Sequence record: OK570374
Reading direction: 5' to 3' (one strand)
DNA length: 64,000 nucleotides
DNA from: Escherichia phage UoN_LG358_1
Under the pieces are notes generated by a model that was not told the DNA's origin, made no database searches, and saw only the letters and a list, made by a program, of their open reading frames with translations. How positions within the stretch are numbered: position 1 is the first letter of the stretch; each line of letters starts with the position of its first letter. Of this stretch, positions 10,077-35,941 are shown in pieces. The translations under genes were made by a program, and so were the position numbers.

Positions 10077-11636
10077 ATGAAAAAGAATAAACTCGTAGAA
10101 AAATGGCAGCCGCTGCTGGAAAACGAAGAACTGCCGGAAATTGTTGGTGCTAGTAAAAAAGCTCTGATTGCTAAAATTCTTGAAAACCAGGAAGCAGATT
10201 TTAAAGTATCTCCGGAATACCGTGATGAGAAAATCGCTCAAGCTTTCGGTTCTTTCTTGACTGAAGCTGAAATTGGCGGAGACCACGGTTACGATGCTCA
10301 GAATATCGCTGCAGGTCAGACTTCTGGCGCAGTAACTCAGATTGGGCCGGCTGTTATGGGTATGGTCCGTCGTGCTATCCCTAACCTGATTGCTTTTGAT
10401 ATCTGTGGCGTTCAGCCAATGAACAGCCCTACCGGTCAGGTTTTCGCTCTTCGTGCTGTATACGGTTCTGACCCGCTGGCTGATAAAGCAAAAGAAGCTT
10501 TCCATCCGATGTATTCTCCGGACGCAATGCATTCTGGTCAAGGTGCCGCTGAGAAATTCGCTAAATTGACCGCTGGCGTTGCTATCACTGAAGGCGATAT
10601 CGTTGTTCATGATTTTGCTGAAACAGGTCGCGCTTATCTGCAGGCTGTAGTTGCTGTAACTCCAGATGCTGGCGCTACTGACCCGGCTAAACTCGACGCT
10701 GCTGTAGTTGCTCTGATGGAAGCTGGTCAGCTGGCTGAAATCGCTGAAGGCATGGCTACCTCTATCGCTGAACTTCAGGAAGGATTTAACGGTTCCCAGA
10801 ATAACTCTTGGAATGAAATGGGTTTCCGTATCGATAAACAAGTTATCGAAGCTAAATCTCGCCAACTGAAAGCTGCATATTCCATCGAATTGGCACAGGA
10901 CCTCCGTGCTGTTCACGGTATGGATGCTGACGCTGAACTGAGTGGTATTTTGGCTACTGAAATCATGCTGGAAATTAACCGTGAAGTTGTAGATTGGATT
11001 AACTTCTCTGCACAGGTTGGTAAATCTGGTATGACCCAGACTGTTGGTTCTAAAGCTGGTGTATTTGACCTTCAGGACCCTATCGATATCCGCGGTGCTC
11101 GTTGGGCTGGTGAAAGCTTTAAAGCTCTTCTGTTCCAGATTGACAAAGAAGCTGCAGAAATTGCACGTCAGACTGGCCGCGGTGCTGGTAACTTCATCAT
11201 CGCTTCCCGCAACGTAGTTAACGTTCTGGCTGCTGTTGATACTTCCGTATCTCCTGCTGCTCAGGGTCTGGGTCGTGGTTTTGAAACTGATACCACTAAA
11301 GCAGTATTCGCTGGTGTTCTTGGCGGTAAATATCGCGTCTATATTGACCAGTATGCTCGTCAGGACTACTTCACCATCGGTTATAAAGGCGCTAACGAAA
11401 TGGATGCTGGTATTTACTACGCTCCTTACGTTGCTCTTACTCCGCTTCGTGGTTCCGATCCGAAGAACTTCCAGCCGGTCATGGGGTTCAAAACTCGTTA
11501 TGGTATCGGTATTAACCCGTTCGCTGATTCTGCTGCACAGCAACCTAAAGGCCGTATCGTTTCCGGTATGCCTTCTCTGGTTAACTCTGTTGGTAAGAAC
11601 GCTTACTTCCGTCGAGTTTACGTCAAAGGAATTTAA
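10077..11636 (+). CDS. 23: major capsid protein
   Basis: 519 aa (T4 gp23 about 521); strong hairpin plus T-run terminator after the stop. Confidence 0.95.
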   Translation: MKKNKLVEKWQPLLENEELPEIVGASKKALIAKILENQEADFKVSPEYRDEKIAQAFGSFLTEAEIGGDHGYDAQNIAAGQTSGAVTQIGPAVMGMVRRAIPNLIAFDICGVQPMNSPTGQVFALRAVYGSDPLADKAKEAFHPMYSPDAMHSGQGAAEKFAKLTAGVAITEGDIVVHDFAETGRAYLQAVVAVTPDAGATDPAKLDAAVVALMEAGQLAEIAEGMATSIAELQEGFNGSQNNSWNEMGFRIDKQVIEAKSRQLKAAYSIELAQDLRAVHGMDADAELSGILATEIMLEINREVVDWINFSAQVGKSGMTQTVGSKAGVFDLQDPIDIRGARWAGESFKALLFQIDKEAAEIARQTGRGAGNFIIASRNVVNVLAAVDTSVSPAAQGLGRGFETDTTKAVFAGVLGGKYRVYIDQYARQDYFTIGYKGANEMDAGIYYAPYVALTPLRGSDPKNFQPVMGFKTRYGIGINPFADSAAQQPKGRIVSGMPSLVNSVGKNAYFRRVYVKGI

Positions 11637-11653
11637 GATTTAACCTTAATTAA

Positions 11654-11677
11654 GGGAACCTTCGGGTTCCCTTTTTT
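11654..11677 (+). terminator. rho-independent terminator after gene 23
   Basis: GGGAACC-ttcg-GGTTCCC then TTTTTT. Confidence 0.85.
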
Positions 11678-11699
11678 CGTTTTTGATGTAAAACAATAT

Positions 11700-11707
11700 T
11701 ATAAATA
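11700..11707 (+). promoter_or_regulatory. late promoter box for gene 24
   Basis: TATAAATA 26 nt upstream of the ATG at 11733. Confidence 0.7.
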
Positions 11708-11732
11708 AAATATATCACAAAAGGAAAGCGCA

Positions 11733-13016
11733 ATGGCAAAGATTAACGAATTACTGCGCGAGTCAACTACAACTTCTAGCAGCTCTTTAGCTCGTCCTAA
11801 TTTGGTTGCTTTGACCCGTGCTACCACTAAATTAATTTACAGCGATATTATCGCAGAACAACGTACCAATCAACCTGTAGCGGCTCTTTATGGAGTAAAA
11901 TATCTAACTCCAGATAATGAGTTTAGTTTTCAAACTGGTGCTACTTATGGCGGACAAATCAGTGAAAAAGACCGTGAAACTATTCCAGAATTAACTAGTA
12001 AAACTCAAACACTTGCGGTTGGTGATTATTTTAAATATCAAAATGTTGTGTATAAAGCTTTACAAGCTAATCCGTTAGCATCTACAAGCGCAACAGATTT
12101 ATCAGACGCACTGCAAGAAGGATTAATTTCTCTTACTTGCCGTTTAGTTCCAGACGCTGCTAATACTGAAAAATTTGAAGATACCGACGTTGAAATTAGT
12201 AGTGCTGTATTTGAAGTAAATAAATGGAATGCTCCTGTTAAAACTCGTAAATTGAAAACCTCGTTGACTGTCGAACTTGCGCAGGATATGGAGTCAAACG
12301 GGTTCGATTCTCCAGCATTTTTAGAAGATTTATTGGCTACAGTTATGGCTGATGAAATTAATAAAGATGTTCTTCAGTCACTGATTACGGTGTCTAAGCG
12401 GTACAAAGTTACAGGTGTTTCTGATAATGGTATTGTAGACTTGAGTTACGCAAATGCCCCGGAAGCTTCACGCAAACTGTATGAAATTGTGTGTGAAATG
12501 AATTCAGAAATTCAGAAAACAACTTCTTATTCGGGTACTTACGTAGTAGCTTCTTCTAGAGCAGCCGCATTGCTGGCAGGTTCAGGCTGGTTAAAACATC
12601 GTCCAGAAGATGATGAATGGTTGCCTTCTACCGCGTATGGATATCTGTTAAATGGGCTTCCTGTATTCTGCGATGTAAATAGTCCTCTGGATTATGTGAC
12701 GGTAGGCGTTAAAGAAAACTACGGTGGAAAAGAAGTAGTTGGTTCTATTTTTTACGCTCCATACACAGAAGGATTAGACCTAGATGACCCGGACCATATC
12801 GGTGCATATAAGGTAATTGTTGACCCAGATAGTTTGCAACCATCAATTTCATTGATGATACGTTATGCTTTGTCTGCTAACCCGTATACAGTAGCTAAAG
12901 ATGAGAAAGAAGCTCGCATCATAGATGCTACTGACATGGATAAAATGGCTGGACAAAGTGATATGTCATATTTGGTTGGGGTTAAACTGCCTAAAATAAT
13001 TTATGAGGCGCCTTAA
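11733..13016 (+). CDS. 24: capsid vertex protein
   Basis: 427 aa; N-terminus MAKINELLRESTTT.. matches remembered T4 gp24; TATAAATA at 11700..11707. Confidence 0.9.
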   Translation: MAKINELLRESTTTSSSSLARPNLVALTRATTKLIYSDIIAEQRTNQPVAALYGVKYLTPDNEFSFQTGATYGGQISEKDRETIPELTSKTQTLAVGDYFKYQNVVYKALQANPLASTSATDLSDALQEGLISLTCRLVPDAANTEKFEDTDVEISSAVFEVNKWNAPVKTRKLKTSLTVELAQDMESNGFDSPAFLEDLLATVMADEINKDVLQSLITVSKRYKVTGVSDNGIVDLSYANAPEASRKLYEIVCEMNSEIQKTTSYSGTYVVASSRAAALLAGSGWLKHRPEDDEWLPSTAYGYLLNGLPVFCDVNSPLDYVTVGVKENYGGKEVVGSIFYAPYTEGLDLDDPDHIGAYKVIVDPDSLQPSISLMIRYALSANPYTVAKDEKEARIIDATDMDKMAGQSDMSYLVGVKLPKIIYEAP

Positions 13017-28799: not shown

Positions 28800-30908
28800 T
28801 CAATCGACAAAACGATTTGGTGTATCGTCGAGGTCTATAAACGAAGCTAAAAGAGATAAAACACTGGTCTCTTCAGATATTTTCGCGGATTTGACAAAAT
28901 TACCAAAATCAATCAATCCAGCGCCCAAACTCCCTCGTTCTGTATCATCTGAATACTCTATAACTTCACCAGTTTCCATTAAATGGTCCCCGTCATAAAC
29001 AACAGTACATTCAGAAAGTTGTTCTGATGTCATGATTTCAGCTTGAATGAATTTTTGATTGCTGTATTCCATTCCGTCATTATATGAAGCATCTGTGATT
29101 TTGTTAATTTGAACCATCGTACCACGAGGTAAAATGATTTCCATTTCACTAGTCATGTTACTTAAATCACCTGGATAAATCACATTAACTTTATGAGCGC
29201 CGTCAATAGCCCAACCAACATTAACTTTAATACGCTCTTGTTTAACTGGGTCCATTTTAGACTCATAATCGTCTAATTTAACGTCTTCAATGCCACCGTC
29301 AATATTCAATACATTCCTAGTAGCGTCAGACGTAAATGCGACACCCTGATTACCTTTCCACCCGCCAAAAATAATCGGAGCTAAAGAAGTTGATACGTAA
29401 TTCCTAAAATAGAATACTCTGTTTTTAACCAAAGCTTCATATATCGGTTTGCGAATTGTTTGAGAACGCCAAATTGTGATTCCTTCTGGTAGTCTATCGC
29501 CTCTTAAAAAAGCTTTATCTAAACTAGAAATCGCCTTTTTGACTTCTTTTTCTGTTAATGTATCATAGTTGTCGATAGTGTATCGACCGAGTAACATATT
29601 ATTGATATCAGAATACGCAGAACCAACATATTCTTTTATGCCCTGACGCTCTTCTTTAGTATATTGCTTTGGAGTGCGGTACATAGTAATATCACGAATA
29701 TTACGAGATACTGTTTTAGCATAACCTTGCAATAGCTCTTTTATAAGCTTAACTCTTTGCATGTTCCATGCGCGTTCAGCGTGTTCTTGCTTTTCTAAAG
29801 CAGACATACCGTAAGGAGCTGATTTTATTTGAGCCTCAATGAAATTATGCTTATTTTCTTCTAATCTGTCAAGCATAGTCTGCACAAATGCTTGCATACT
29901 TTTGACAGAAGTTAAATTATCATCGCCAATTCGCTTTAAAAGCTCCTTTTGAACATTTTTTTCTTCTCTTTCAAAATCCGTAAATGTCTTACCTACGATT
30001 TTGGAAACATGATAGACAATTTCACCTGATGCAGTAAGAGCTGATACAGCCTTTGAAGCTTTTGAGCTTATAGCATTTAAAATCTCTTTGGATTCTGGAA
30101 TTATTTTCGCCGTAGCAGGTTTACTAAATTCAGCGGCGGTAGCTTCATAGCGTTCAAAATCTGGGCCTTCAAAACGTTCAGTTTCCAAAGACTGTGACAT
30201 CGCGACCTGGCGACGAGAAATTTTAGCTCGAGAAATTACGCTTTGAACTGAACGAGTGTCATTTTCCTTTGCAATAGATGAAGCAATTGCCGTGTTTTTG
30301 GAAACTTGATTGCCGGTTTTAACATCAACGTAAACTTCGCCTACAGCAGTATCAACCTTCTTGAACTCATCCGTTGATATCTCTGGGACCCCTGGAACGG
30401 TTGAGAGGTCAATATTTTTACGATGAATAAGAATATATGCGTACTTCTTATCATAATCCCAGAGTTCTTTGAGTATAACGTATTTACCTCCAGTGCGGCT
30501 ACGGACTAATCGGTCCATGATAATCTGGAGTTGACGGGCTTGTCCGCCAATTTTAGATTTAGTGATACGGAACAACACTGCATCAATTTTATATTGACGC
30601 ATAGATGAATAAACAATATTGAATACGGTAGAAATAGTTCCGATTGGGTCTGGACCCAAGTTTTTCATTTTAACCAAAGAACCTTTTTCGCTCAAAGATA
30701 ACATAACTACGTGCGCCATCTTATCGCCAGGCTTAATATTTTTATTAGTATCGCCGCCTGACGTATAAGTACACATACGAAAAGCCGGCGTCGTACCTTG
30801 GTCAATTTCGCCAATAGCAAAAATCTGTGGTATTTTCGTTTTTGGATAAAGATTTGTAACCGGAAGGTCCAACTTATCTTCATCAAAAACTTCATTTAAT
30901 TCTAACAT
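28800..30908 (-). CDS. alt: ADP-ribosyltransferase Alt
   Basis: 702 aa; R..STS..EME ADP-ribosyltransferase-like triad in the C-terminal part (YVSTSLAP, SEMEIILP); T4 alt position; own minus-strand TATAAATA box. Confidence 0.8.
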   Translation of the reverse strand: MLELNEVFDEDKLDLPVTNLYPKTKIPQIFAIGEIDQGTTPAFRMCTYTSGGDTNKNIKPGDKMAHVVMLSLSEKGSLVKMKNLGPDPIGTISTVFNIVYSSMRQYKIDAVLFRITKSKIGGQARQLQIIMDRLVRSRTGGKYVILKELWDYDKKYAYILIHRKNIDLSTVPGVPEISTDEFKKVDTAVGEVYVDVKTGNQVSKNTAIASSIAKENDTRSVQSVISRAKISRRQVAMSQSLETERFEGPDFERYEATAAEFSKPATAKIIPESKEILNAISSKASKAVSALTASGEIVYHVSKIVGKTFTDFEREEKNVQKELLKRIGDDNLTSVKSMQAFVQTMLDRLEENKHNFIEAQIKSAPYGMSALEKQEHAERAWNMQRVKLIKELLQGYAKTVSRNIRDITMYRTPKQYTKEERQGIKEYVGSAYSDINNMLLGRYTIDNYDTLTEKEVKKAISSLDKAFLRGDRLPEGITIWRSQTIRKPIYEALVKNRVFYFRNYVSTSLAPIIFGGWKGNQGVAFTSDATRNVLNIDGGIEDVKLDDYESKMDPVKQERIKVNVGWAIDGAHKVNVIYPGDLSNMTSEMEIILPRGTMVQINKITDASYNDGMEYSNQKFIQAEIMTSEQLSECTVVYDGDHLMETGEVIEYSDDTERGSLGAGLIDFGNFVKSAKISEETSVLSLLASFIDLDDTPNRFVD

Positions 30909-30962: not shown

Positions 30963-31141
30963 TAATACATTTTTGTTACTTGTCGCCAGATTTTAATTCC
31001 CGGAGCTTCTTCAAATGATACTACATCTTCAAAATACTTATCGGCTATATCCCAACTATTAAATTCGAGCTGGTTTGTTGTGATAGCTACATTACCATTG
31101 TCTGATAGAACAGTAACTTCTAATAAAATATCGTAACTCAT
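30962..31141 (-). CDS. small ORF (59 aa) between gene 30 and alt
   Basis: Not in track; ATG overlaps gene 30 stop (ATGA); stop lies in the terminator hairpin. Confidence 0.35.
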   Translation of the reverse strand: MSYDILLEVTVLSDNGNVAITTNQLEFNSWDIADKYFEDVVSFEEAPGIKIWRQVTKMY

Positions 31142-32595
31142 AATCCAGTAACCTCATGGAAATCACCCCAGATATCTGCAAACGTATTAGCAACATCTTT
31201 ATCACGCCGCATCTTTATCGCAATAGGAAGAAACAGTTTAACATAATCGGTGCGACCATCAGCGGCCAACCAACCATTACATTCACTTTCCAATACGCTT
31301 CCGATATATTCTTCTTGGTTTTCCCAAATGCGCGTACGGTCCAGTTCGTGAGCATCTTTTCCGGGCTTGTCTTTTAAGCCTGAACCAGCTTTAACTTTAA
31401 TTAACCCGCATTCCGATTCAAGATAAAAACCACCAGCTTTTCCTGGGTGTTTACTATGAGGATAAATTCCAACAATACGAAGGTCAACAGTAATTACTTC
31501 TTTAAATTTATATTGGTTTTTTGAACGAGCATTCTCCCAAAAACCACCAATATTCTTAAGAATAATCCCTTCGAGTCCTTTATCAACATATTTGCGATAA
31601 ACGACTTTAGCTTCGTCAAGATTGTGGACGATATGGTTCTCAATGAGAATCATCTGAGAGTAGTCTTGAACCATTAGTTCCAGCGCTCGGAAACGAACAT
31701 CATACGCAAAACCAGGTTCTTTTCCATCGGAATATACTACATCCAATGGAACATAATCCCACACTTGAAACTTCATACCTGCAGCTTCTTTGGCTGAGAT
31801 AGTTCCTTTCAGAGATTTGTTGGCTAGTCCGTTTGACGCAGTTCGAGATTCGTTTTCTTCTGATTTACTCAATTCAGTCAAATCACCAAACATGCCATCT
31901 AGTGGTCCAGAAGGTTCTTTCGCAGCATGATAAACCAACTCACCGTCAATCATCACCCCGCCCGGATGACGTTCACGAGCTTCTTTGGTCATATCAATAA
32001 GTTGCTGTTTTAACAAATCTAAACCAAGATATTCGTTACCAGCGCGAGACAGAATTTTTACATCATCTAATTCATCACCACGAACTTCGGCAAACGCCCT
32101 TGCGCCATCGGCCTTAAGCTGTGCAAATGCAGGGAATTTAATATTCTTAAGAATATCTTTTTCGTTATAAGACGAAGCAAGCATTTGTGGTTGTTCTGGA
32201 ATTAATCCAGCCCAAACTTTATTTGCAATAGAACGGGATGCACCACAACGAAGGTCACGAAGAAGAACCTTTTTCAATACTTCGCGGTCAGATTCATTCA
32301 TTCGTTGTAATGTAGAAGCTAATTTGTCTAAAGCTGCATTTCCAGTTATTTTACGAGTAGCGAACAAATTCTCTAAAACATCTAAAGCAGAATTCAAAGA
32401 AAATTGAGTTGCATTAGGCAGATAGCAATCTGGATTATTCCACTTCTTGATGTAATATTGAAGTTTTCCGTCATAAGTCATTCGAAATACGCGCTTTAAA
32501 ACTTCATTATCTTTATTGCGACGAATGATTGCTTCTTTTTCTTTGGTAGAACCTATGGCTGCAATTTCATTAATAATATCTAAAATCATATTCAT
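31138..32595 (-). CDS. 30: ATP-dependent DNA ligase
   Basis: 485 aa; KADGAR adenylation motif; translation matches remembered T4 ligase along its length. Confidence 0.95.
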   Translation of the reverse strand: MNMILDIINEIAAIGSTKEKEAIIRRNKDNEVLKRVFRMTYDGKLQYYIKKWNNPDCYLPNATQFSLNSALDVLENLFATRKITGNAALDKLASTLQRMNESDREVLKKVLLRDLRCGASRSIANKVWAGLIPEQPQMLASSYNEKDILKNIKFPAFAQLKADGARAFAEVRGDELDDVKILSRAGNEYLGLDLLKQQLIDMTKEARERHPGGVMIDGELVYHAAKEPSGPLDGMFGDLTELSKSEENESRTASNGLANKSLKGTISAKEAAGMKFQVWDYVPLDVVYSDGKEPGFAYDVRFRALELMVQDYSQMILIENHIVHNLDEAKVVYRKYVDKGLEGIILKNIGGFWENARSKNQYKFKEVITVDLRIVGIYPHSKHPGKAGGFYLESECGLIKVKAGSGLKDKPGKDAHELDRTRIWENQEEYIGSVLESECNGWLAADGRTDYVKLFLPIAIKMRRDKDVANTFADIWGDFHEVTGL

Positions 32596-34314: not shown

Positions 34315-34803
34315 TTAGACAAAACTTATTTTGACAGTTTTCTTAGCTTCTAGCTTAAGCTCTGTGATAAAAACACGATAATTATCACTTGGTGCCATAC
34401 GTAGTTCTTCTGCAATTTTCTTGGCTTTTTCTAAAGTAAAGAGGTTCTTTTCATTTTCTTTAAAAACGACTGCACTTCCACATTCAAGAGAGCGAACAAC
34501 CATGAATGTTTCAGGTCCTTCAGTCTCAGATTTAAACTCAATTTTTCCTTGATATACTTCATCAAAATCAAACAGGTTCCAGCCATTCCACTGCGAACCA
34601 CAATCTGCACCATCATAACGACCGCGAAATTGAGCGTCCAAAAATTCTACTTCAGTGATACACTTTCCACCAACGGATACTTTAGTGGCTTTAAGCCAAG
34701 CATTTCCGAACAAACATTTGATTTTGGCGTCAAATGAGTTCAAATCGACATCCCATTTATCAGTCATACGGAATACATCACCAACTTCAAAACATGTTTT
34801 CAT
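34315..34803 (-). CDS. hypothetical early protein
   Basis: 162 aa; own early promoter (34853..34882) and GAGGAA RBS. Confidence 0.5.
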   Translation of the reverse strand: MKTCFEVGDVFRMTDKWDVDLNSFDAKIKCLFGNAWLKATKVSVGGKCITEVEFLDAQFRGRYDGADCGSQWNGWNLFDFDEVYQGKIEFKSETEGPETFMVVRSLECGSAVVFKENEKNLFTLEKAKKIAEELRMAPSDNYRVFITELKLEAKKTVKISFV

Positions 34804-34852
34804 AATTTCCTCATTAAATTTAAACTAAGGCGGTATTGGTTATTGAGTTTAT

Positions 34853-34882
34853 ACTATAACACACTTTTATGCTGATGTAAAC
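34853..34882 (-). promoter_or_regulatory. early-type promoter (GTTTACA-N17-TATAGT)
   Basis: Minus strand; upstream of ORF 34315..34803; same 23-nt repeat as 34271..34293. Confidence 0.6.
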
Positions 34883-34898
34883 GGCAGACTTTAGAAAC

Positions 34899-34924
34899 AA
34901 AAAAGGGACTCCCGAAGGAGTCCC
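34899..34924 (-). terminator. rho-independent terminator after the small basic ORF
   Basis: GGGACTCC-cgaa-GGAGTCCC with minus-strand UUUUUU. Confidence 0.8.
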
Positions 34925-34934
34925 TAACATTGCT

Positions 34935-35114
34935 TTATGCTTTCTTACGCGGATTACCAAAAGCAGCATCATGAGCAAGAACTTTACGAGCACGAGATGC
35001 TAGCTGGTCAGCCAATGGATTGATACGAGAGTTAGACCCACGCTTGTAGCCAGCGCGTTTAGAGGTACCAACAACTTCTTTTACTGCGGTTTTTGCTTTA
35101 GATTGCTTAGCCAT
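34935..35114 (-). CDS. small highly basic protein (59 aa)
   Basis: Not in track; MAKQSKAKTAVKEVVGTSKRAGYKRGSNSRINPLADQLASRARKVLAHDAAFGNPRKKA; strong hairpin plus U-run terminator right after the stop. Confidence 0.5.
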   Translation of the reverse strand: MAKQSKAKTAVKEVVGTSKRAGYKRGSNSRINPLADQLASRARKVLAHDAAFGNPRKKA

Positions 35115-35267
35115 TTTAATATTCCATATTCGGAGTAATACAACGAACTGGTCTTATTGACATTGCCAGTTCTCAAGCCCTCGAAGGGTACTTAGCACTT
35201 TGGTAGCTTACACCCAAGGTTTTGAATTGTTAACGTGGTGATAACCTTGAACGTCCACATCATACAG

Positions 35268-35516
35268 TTACTTCAAAGTAACCACAAAATGACGAACTGC
35301 CTTACGAGCTGAACTGCATAAGCCTTTAGCGAATTTTAATTCGTCTTTTAAAAGAAGAGCATCACGAAAATCAGCTTGCACTGGATTAAGGTGTTTAAAC
35401 CCTTTCAGTACTTCAAGAGCTTCGGCCAATACATCAATTGATGCGCCGTAGTTTTCATGACCTGCATTCCAGGCAGTGCGTTGCAGAGAAAGAGCGTGTT
35501 CAAGTTGTTTGTTCAT
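35268..35516 (-). CDS. rIII: rIII-like protein
   Basis: 82 aa (T4 rIII is 82 aa) at the T4 rIII position beside gene 31. Confidence 0.6.
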   Translation of the reverse strand: MNKQLEHALSLQRTAWNAGHENYGASIDVLAEALEVLKGFKHLNPVQADFRDALLLKDELKFAKGLCSSARKAVRHFVVTLK

Positions 35517-35545
35517 TTAAAAAGCCTCAAATGAGGTGAATAAAA

Positions 35546-35582
35546 GGAAGGCGGTATAAGAAGTTTAATCCCTGCGCCTTCC
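35546..35582 (-). other. long-loop stem between gene 31 and rIII
   Basis: 8-bp stem GGAAGGCG / CGCCTTCC with 21-nt loop; T-rich tract follows on minus strand. Confidence 0.3.
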
Positions 35583-35617
35583 ACCATGTAATCAGAAAGA
35601 TTACAATAATATTTATA

Positions 35618-35941
35618 TCACTTATAAACGCACGCTAACGATTTATAATGACAAGTAACAAATTTTTGTTTAATTTCTTTAGGCTGCTTAATGCCTAACG
35701 CAACCAATGGATGAGTTACATTGCGAATATTACCAACTGGTAGCGGAGTTAAATCACCAACTTCTACGAAGCCAGCGGGTACATCAGCACCAATTGAATA
35801 TACTTCACACATTTCAGGAAGTTGGCCCTGAATTTCTTTACCCAAGAAAATACCCGAATCTGAAATTTTTTCATCACCAGATTGTGCTGGTTCTGATACC
35901 AAAATAACAAATTCGCCTAGAGCTTTAATAGGAAGTTCCAT
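35618..35941 (-). CDS. 31: GroES-like co-chaperonin
   Basis: 107 aa; ..[15 protein letters not shown].. and C-terminus [16 protein letters not shown] match remembered T4 gp31. Confidence 0.9.

Follow-up and report, generated by a model that had tools for sequence, protein, structure and literature searches.

Assignment of a small basic protein gene between rIII and the gene 30 block of a Gelderlandvirus genome as the orthologue of phage T4 gene 30.9

In the 64,000 nucleotides (nt) of DNA from Escherichia phage UoN_LG358_1 that were analysed here (sequence record OK570374, hereafter the window), a minus-strand open reading frame (ORF) of 59 codons lies behind the rIII gene and, judged by its sequence, relatives and neighbours, can be assigned as the Gelderlandvirus orthologue of phage T4 gene 30.9. 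A preliminary description of the window had pointed to it as an unannotated gene for a highly basic peptide, and the coordinates, the peptide and its composition are all reproduced by our analysis. However, annotation is missing only on the ORF track that accompanied that description, since public records list the same protein as a hypothetical protein of Salmonella phage Melville (ATN93172.1 / YP_009615684.1), and the T4 name 30.9 is decades old. What we describe is thus the re-discovery of a gene already catalogued in T4, and for this reason no new element is added to the map. In this regard, the analysis provides gp30.9, one of the small conserved early genes of unknown function of the best-studied phage family, with a signature motif, an operon context, evidence for purifying selection and a predicted architecture in which a basic arm is followed by a single helix. 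The gene is placed as follows:

34935..35114, minus strand: gene 30.9 orthologue, encoding a 59-amino-acid (aa) basic protein, based on sequence, orthology, the phrog_1427 match, the conserved start, the ratio of nonsynonymous to synonymous divergence (dN/dS) and an AlphaFold model

The frame runs on the minus strand from 35114 to 34935, with an ATG start and a TAA stop, and its 6.3-kDa product has an isoelectric point of 11.46 and contains 15 Lys and Arg residues (25%) against 3 Asp and Glu, which gives a net charge of about +12. The surrounding region is that of a Gelderlandvirus (an S16-like Salmonella phage), with 99.3-99.6% DNA identity to phages SEA1 and Melville, and both the gene and its product are 99-100% identical to their counterparts annotated as hypothetical proteins in these two phages, the Melville protein being fully identical. 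The homology search that the preliminary description had proposed as a check revealed by tblastn homologues in 1034 phage records, among them annotated 30.9 genes, with the matching gene bearing that name in T2 and RB51. The T4 counterpart is gene 30.9 (130364..130540, AAD42450.1, UniProt P17310), and both the T2 and T4 versions keep 65% identity with the window protein over the core. The sole family match was phrog_1427, a conserved hypothetical family of unknown function (E=1.9e-29, residues 1-58). In the same line, a profile search of 1.84 billion representatives returned 17 clusters, 16 of them genuine and composed of small basic proteins; the only long match, P0057 (617 aa), consists of low-complexity repeats and was discarded as spurious. 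Those clusters with a readable genomic context belong to T4-like phages. The 30.9 family is a narrow orphan.

Gene order leads to the same assignment. The relevant neighbours in the window are:

35618..35941, minus strand: gene 31 (gp31)
35268..35516, minus strand: rIII
31138..32595, minus strand: gene 30, DNA ligase with the KADG motif
28800..30908, minus strand: alt

The ORF is found downstream of 31 and rIII, last before a terminator and upstream of the gene 30 cluster, in agreement with the place that the preliminary description had given it. The order 31, rIII, 30.9, 30.8/30.7 is common to Gelderlandvirus, Karamvirus, Jiaodavirus, Dhakavirus, Tequatrovirus and an unclassified Serratia phage, and the gene is also kept in more distant T4-like phages; in a 171-kb member of the latter, the homologue comes directly after gene 31, between cd and the ligase gene, and also ends in a hairpin. 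A lack of conservation in related phages, named in the preliminary description as part of what would refute it, is thereby clearly excluded. Compared with T4 gp30.9, the window protein shares its position after rIII and before the terminator/early-promoter junction preceding 30.8-30, its size (58-59 aa), its N-terminal arm and the core motif SKRAGYKRGSNSRIN, and even the terminator sequence is identical (GGACUCC-UUCG-GGAGUCC). On the other hand, the C-terminal helix is PLADQLASRARKVLAHDAAFGNPRKKA in the window and Karamvirus whereas it is QTVEKIMRRARAVLRDDASRFGKQKA in T4, T2 and Klebsiella phages, and the T4 leader measures 244 nt instead of the 153 nt of the window, with other module content.

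The way in which the gene changes among relatives indicates that 34935..35114 is a real, selectively maintained protein-coding gene. Across the 45 loci compared, the Met-Ala/Ser-Lys start is kept while the open frame 5' of it is not, the stop position is maintained, and all length differences amount to whole codons, as corresponds to in-frame indels. Among alleles sharing the same type of C-terminal helix, dN/dS ranges from 0.06 to 0.19, with dN 5-16 times below dS; taken over 615 pairs, its median is 0.32. Moreover, distant members of 41-92 aa retain the peptide motif despite their diverged DNA. Amino-acid conservation of 30.9 against five relatives is 55-97%, a level that exceeds those of rIII and gp31 only against the Karamvirus relative and is equal or lower in the other four. 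Neither the length of the ORF nor its basic composition is significant on its own in such an A+T-rich window: 41 mechanically called ORFs of at least 30 aa occur in the 4.5 kb around it, and among the 142 such ORFs that reach 50 aa in the whole window (counted from the first ATG), 4 have an even higher isoelectric point. Terminator-like sites are likewise at chance level by count, with 1 in 1.4 kb against a mean of 1.1 in shuffled sequences. The feature rises above chance because it is conserved, as seen in the 1034 phage records, the purifying selection and a terminator present in 44 of the 45 loci with compensatory changes.

Two signals follow the stop codon:

34898..34925, minus strand: intrinsic terminator closing the 31-rIII-30.9 unit, with a 9-bp stem AGGGACUCC/GGAGUCCCU, a UUCG loop and six U
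34853..34881, minus strand: T4-early-type sigma-70 promoter, with TTTACA, 17 nt and TGT-TATAGT (TGTTATAGT)

The hairpin (34925..34904) is perfect, with 6 G-C pairs among its 9 bp, a UUCG tetraloop and a UUUUUUG tail, and the 48 nt after the stop codon reach a minimum free energy (MFE) of -20.2 kcal/mol. An 8-bp GC stem with six U immediately behind the ORF had been reported previously; the hairpin and its U-run are there, but the stem has 9 bp and starts 9 nt past the stop codon. A perfect hairpin of 8-10 bp followed by a U-run is found 0-8 nt past the stop in 44 of the 45 loci, in 24 variants whose stem cores (GGGACUCC, GGGGCUCC, GGGAUUCC, GGGAGAC, GGGAACC and the 7-bp GGGACUC) differ by compensatory changes, such as A-U to G-C (locus L010), C-G to U-A (L006) and the GAGAC/GUCUC and GAACC/GGUUC cores. 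By criteria of structure and covariation, this element is a conserved intrinsic (Rho-independent) terminator. The promoter begins 22 nt after the terminator stem, matches the consensus at 10 of 12 positions and carries in addition a TG extension; GTTTAC...TATAGT/TATGAT is kept behind the terminator in most relatives. By this anatomy, 30.9 is the last cistron of a transcription unit shared with 31 and rIII.

Terminator and promoter together look like the PeSL-type terminator/promoter cassettes of T4-like phages (PMC2839356, PMC4122927), where a stem-loop is also followed within about 20 nt by a promoter of the TTTACA-N17-TATAGT kind. The T4/PST-type consensus is TTTACW-N17-TAYWAT (PMC4122927), from which the -10 hexamer of the window, TATAGT, departs at one base; a further difference is that the stem-loop is single-copy in the 64-kb window and not one of a repeated set. 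Gene content varies between close relatives directly behind the cassette (window 34804-34852; L001:2007-2447), where Melville has an extra 120-aa ORF, CPT_Melville_208, which the window does not carry. Another gene occupies this place in four loci (L008, L009, L011 and L015), and several Karamvirus-like loci combine a different gene with the absence of a promoter. None of the T2, Kpn6N, Bp7, fGh-Ecl01 and 92A1 loci has a counterpart of the first gene that follows in the window (34315..34803, 162 aa).

The protein itself divides into two parts. The arm, comprising residues 1-32, is rich in Lys and Arg and contains the core S18-K-R-A-G-Y-K-R-G-S-N-S-R-I-N32. The motif of the family reads [ST]-K-R-A-G-Y-K-R-x-[ST]-N-x-R-[IV]-[ND], with a helix after it that ends in A-R-x-x-[LI], and the window protein keeps both elements as S18-KRAGYKRGSNSRIN-32 and R41-A-R-K-V-L46. 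In an alignment of 20 diverse members, M1, R20, G22, Y23, K24, R25 and R30 never change and N28 and R43 hardly do, which leaves R-x-G-Y-K-R-x-S/T-N-x-R as the near-invariant core of the arm; outside this alignment, G22 is replaced by Lys in one locus (L021, RAKYKR). AlphaFold2, run with the family alignment, leaves residues 1-32 without regular structure (predicted local distance difference test, pLDDT, of about 58-61) and gives a single confident helix at residues 33-52 (pLDDT 85-91). This helix is amphipathic, with a conserved hydrophobic stripe formed by I31, L34, L38, A42 and V45/L46 and with the conserved basic residues R41, R43 and K44. Its two alleles, PLADQLASRARKV... and QTVEKIMRRARAV..., are spread mosaically among genera.

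With respect to function, for which nothing was found in the literature searched, we tentatively favour a model in which gp30.9 folds on nucleic acid through its arm and oligomerises or docks through its helix, although we rate its chances as somewhat short of even. The charge of about +12, the unstructured arm with its invariant Arg, Lys, Tyr and Asn, and the single amphipathic helix are features that such a protein would have. Nucleic-acid binding, already suggested from composition in the preliminary description, is thus our best guess on the basis of composition, the predicted disordered basic arm and the one helix, and RNA or the ribosome would be a more likely target than DNA. In such a model, 30.9 would be translated from a weak and partly sequestered ribosome-binding site at the end of the early 31-rIII-30.9 unit; transcription would stop at the conserved terminator and would be restarted for the 30.x and ligase genes by the T4-early-type promoter. 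The disordered arm would then contact host or phage transcripts, or the ribosome, whereas helix 33-52, with its hydrophobic stripe and its Arg and Lys, may provide self-association or docking to a partner.

In T4, the 30.9 RNA is classed as early (PMC9697503, supplementary file 4). Several observations weigh against the nucleic-acid model. The time-resolved proteomics of the same study assigned the T4 protein no class, an argument that counts only weakly, as a 6-kDa protein rich in Lys and Arg yields few usable tryptic peptides. No homology of gp30.9 to any nucleic-acid-binding family could be detected: searches of Pfam and NCBIfam with the window protein gave no family at E<=10, ribosomal and nucleic-acid-binding families included, and when 20 members were used only scattered and mutually inconsistent matches appeared (E>=0.014). 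A sequence search of the PDB gave no match either, and a profile search there returned a 26-residue helix match to SlmA (E=0.12) that was rejected as chance. Finally, a basic composition is common among spurious ORFs of this AT-rich window, and it is equally compatible with binding to an acidic protein surface.

The arginine-rich-motif N proteins of phages lambda and P22 are small, very basic, early and largely disordered RNA-binding proteins whose basic segment folds on RNA. As in that case, gp30.9 is small, very basic, largely disordered and early, and its unit includes structured RNA and a terminator; however, no search revealed sequence similarity, and the gp30.9 motif contains Gly, Tyr and Asn and is predicted to be non-helical. 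Small basic ribosomal proteins such as bL35 and bS21, as well as the ribosome binders of jumbo phages (PMC10914614), resemble gp30.9 in size, charge and the presence of an extended basic segment rich in Lys, Arg, Gly and aromatic residues. No ribosomal family of Pfam was matched even at E<=10.

The main rival explanation is that gp30.9 acts on a host protein, on which the helix would dock while the arm fills a groove that is acidic or binds nucleic acid. It would then be an early takeover or counter-defence factor that inhibits or modulates a host enzyme or a defence system against phages. Early expression, dispensability in the laboratory, natural loss in one lineage, restriction to T4-like phages, location in an accessory-gene region and the conserved hydrophobic stripe of the helix all favour it, because such traits are typical of host-takeover and counter-defence proteins. 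In this regard, knock-down of T4 30.9 with dCas13d had no fitness effect ('Not Fit', score 0.04, p 0.26; PMC11879866 supplement), and a 2003 paper (reference 74 of PMC9409239) is devoted to the expression of 30.9 in vivo. In one minus-strand locus (L062, ~11600-12000, IMGVR_UViG_2706796796), rIII and the leader modules E, A, D and F described below are intact, and of 30.9 only the first ~15 codons are left, with an unrelated gene (MSELKQYQSHKLVWAAPM...) fused to them or taking the place of the rest, a replacement that is consistent with dispensability. Altogether, gp30.9 is probably accessory and dispensable in the laboratory. Nevertheless, action on a host protein appears rather unlikely to us: PADLOC gave nothing meaningful for gp30.9, neither PADLOC nor PHROGs revealed similarity to known anti-defence or defence-associated proteins, and the most conserved part of the molecule is the charged disordered arm and not the helix.

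The surroundings of the ORF are more interesting than the ORF itself, as the spacer that separates it from rIII is a mosaic of RNA structures outside Rfam, which compensatory changes in 27-45 related loci support. The features recognised there are:

35115..35267, minus strand: whole 153-nt rIII-30.9 spacer, 5' leader of 30.9 in the co-transcript (by modular comparison)
35215..35258, minus strand: module A, a predicted H-type pseudoknot (by covariation)
35178..35188, minus strand: leader hairpin E, CCCU-UCG-AGGG, then CUUGAG (by comparison)
35145..35172, minus strand: leader hairpin F, GAACUGG, a 14-nt loop CAAUGUCAAUAAGA and CCAGUUC (by comparison)
35122..35135, minus strand: weak Shine-Dalgarno sequence GGA(A) (35125..35122), pairable with CUCC (35135..35132) (by comparison)

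Spacer length in relatives varies from 120 to 398 nt, the spacers being assembled from shared modules, and no ORF in them is conserved among relatives. The best supported of the modules, A, is present in 43 of the 45 loci. Its first stem (S1) pairs GUGG (35258..35255) with CCAC (35238..35235), and the second one (S2) pairs CAAGGUU (35249..35243) with AACCUUG (35221..35215), with conserved loops AUC.. and CGUUAA...CAAA. S1 (3-4 bp) can form in all 27 distinct sequences, as GUG/CAC, GAC/GUC, GUC/GAC, GUU/AAC or GGC/GCC, with two covarying pairs, and S2 (5-7 bp) shows four pairs with double changes. Pairing across the module amounts to 82.4%, compared with 66.8% in column shuffles (none of 500 reaches either the pairing or the covariation score) and 36-52% in slid registers. 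With a covariance model of the module, the T4 spacer gives one match and the 64-kb window a single strong one, at 58.6 bits. Shuffled sequences reach an MFE no different from that of the window leader (z=-0.5), so that structure in this leader is argued from covariation instead of folding energy.

The remaining modules are simpler. Hairpin E is kept in most relatives, with GCCU/AGGC replacing its stem in locus L040, and lies directly after the rIII stop in Karamvirus. A hairpin occupies the position of F in every relative, with stems as different as GCAGG/CCUGC in T2, GGGAGC/GCUCCC in Klebsiella phages and GAGAGGU/ACCUCUC in Karamvirus, and a small hairpin D is also counted among the conserved modules. 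Most relatives have a predicted small hairpin at the Shine-Dalgarno sequence, with a UUUUCG/GAGAA-type stem in T2 and CCUC/GAGG in L040; in the window, the pairing is CUCC/GGAA and would sequester the Shine-Dalgarno sequence.

As far as the literature searched and Rfam show, these structures are undescribed. When the leaders of the window and 7 related loci were compared with Rfam, no match was found on the transcribed strand at E<=1, the best scores being 11-15 bits against gathering thresholds of at least 42; Atu_C8, PsrR1 and Transposase-1, which surfaced in the leader/terminator region, are sub-threshold noise. The topology of module A recalls that of a preQ1-I riboswitch, a likeness that was dropped as no preQ1 model of Rfam matched. 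Searches of the spacer for transfer RNAs (tRNAs) and transfer-messenger RNA were negative, and the leader has no similarity to the T4 stable RNAs rnaC and rnaD. A mini-ORF starting ATGATG at module A was rejected because neither its length nor its sequence is conserved. A conserved TATGAT before module A was also considered as a promoter and set aside, with 8 of 12 matches in the window and the hexamer absent in T4 (GAATGATG). As T4 shows no promoter-like -10 before module A, its spacer would be internal to the rIII-30.9 co-transcript.

A near-perfect copy of module A (57.3 bits) was also found far from its usual place, in a 58-nt gap between tRNA-Asp and tRNA-Pro (L071:6794-6847, IMGVR_UViG_3300020045_002265), within an array of 12 tRNAs of another phage contig and with no 30.9 gene nearby. 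This copy hints at a role of the module in RNA processing or stability rather than as a gene-specific operator.

The 30.9 ORF is also peculiar at its silent sites. For the same genome pairs, dS is 0.12, 0.35, 0.53 and 0.50 in 30.9, compared with saturation, 1.8, 1.4 and 1.4 in rIII and 1.2-1.7 in gene 31, that is, a silent divergence 3-10 times lower (34935-35114 versus 35268-35941). Identical residues are encoded by the same codon in 76-91% of cases in 30.9 and in 47-62% in its neighbours (Fisher p 1.7e-7 to 0.075), and the core DNA TCT AAA CGC GCT GGY TAC AAG CGT is almost invariant in 35 sequences. An invariant 6-bp hairpin could form inside the ORF (CGCGCU-GGCUACA-AGCGUG), and RNAalifold found no covariation there. 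Recent lateral exchange of a cassette of leader, ORF, terminator and promoter, a function at the RNA level or codon selection could each cause this low divergence; in any case, the leader-ORF-terminator cassette evolves far more slowly at silent sites than its neighbours.

A bolder proposal would join these observations: leader, ORF and terminator may constitute an RNA-protein regulatory cassette, in which gp30.9 would be a new small RNA-binding protein for the leader or the transcript a dual-function RNA. We regard it as a long shot, which if true would explain the conservation of the spacer and of silent sites far above that of flanking genes, and a link between leader features and protein would offer a direct experimental handle on gp30.9 function. 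Autogenous regulation, a separate rival reading in which gp30.9 would bind module A and the hairpins of its own leader to control the weak ribosome-binding site, has a precedent in the pseudoknot-mediated autoregulation of T4 gene 32 (PMC3014915). As in gene 32, an H-type pseudoknot conserved across relatives lies roughly 60-100 nt 5' of the start codon; but the sequence is unrelated, the gene is different and no protein is known to bind module A, of which a copy also sits in the tRNA array. In addition, hairpins separate the pseudoknot from the ribosome-binding site in the 30.9 leader, in contrast to the unstructured A/U-rich stretch found there in gene 32. The small size and basic nature of gp30.9, the covariation-supported pseudoknot and hairpins that precede the gene in 43 of 45 loci, and a reverse scan of IMG/VR in which every module A copy whose stem context is complete, apart from the two in L062 and L071, has a 30.9 homologue downstream speak for autoregulation. 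However, synteny alone explains this co-occurrence, the leader is retained where the ORF has been replaced (L062), module A exists in a tRNA array without 30.9, distant homologues lack the leader, and protein allele and leader type show no co-variation, all of which makes autoregulation improbable.

That the ORF is untranslated, its conservation reflecting an RNA or DNA element such as a non-coding or 3'-end-derived RNA, is very improbable. The low dS and high codon identity, the possible invariant hairpin inside the ORF, the strong terminator and the missing proteomics class are what such a situation would produce, but the reading frame survives in 45 loci together with its start codon and the place of its stop, every indel being in frame, dN falls 5-16 times below dS among close alleles, distant homologues preserve the peptide motif over diverged DNA, and RNAalifold covariation is missing from the ORF. 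A gene that both codes for protein and acts as RNA would be compatible with these data. A DNA-condensing or virion-internal protein packaged with the genome, a role to which only small size and very basic composition point, is scarcely credible for a gene with an early and not late transcript, located in an early accessory cluster, knocked down without fitness effect and encoding an N-terminus (MAKQ...) unlike the capsid-targeting/prohead-protease signal that T4 internal proteins carry there.

Some further observations concern the spacers of relatives. T2 and several others have an insert of ~43 nt, TACTATCATGCGTCAGAAAAGTGTTATCTGTGTAAGTCTTGGTGGTATGATG, just before module A (L002:1295-1337), which is absent in T4 (L050) and resembles a promoter, with GTTATC, 17 nt and TGGTATGAT; T4 has GAATGATG at that place. 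A dedicated promoter may therefore drive 30.9 in certain phages only. A second insert, module B, of ~135 nt (CGGCAAGUGCAUGCUACC...GGUGUGCAACAGAUAAGAG), occurs at L004:943-1077 and in 18 other loci, which belong to Klebsiella phages, RB69-like phages and others; it precedes module A in some and follows it in others, and is absent from the window. RNAalifold folds it with 39 pairs, 13 of them showing compensatory double changes, and no Rfam match was found; in its distribution and predicted fold, module B behaves like a mobile structured RNA element. At the other end of the spacer, the last codons and stop of rIII lie in the window within an inverted repeat, GTTAC-TTTGAA-GTAAC (35262-35281, minus strand). 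In relatives, GTAAC followed by (N)GTATGATG recurs and closes a separate covarying hairpin, which reads CCAUG-UGUACG-CAUGG in Klebsiella phages and CUCUG-UGUACG-CAGAG in locus L025.

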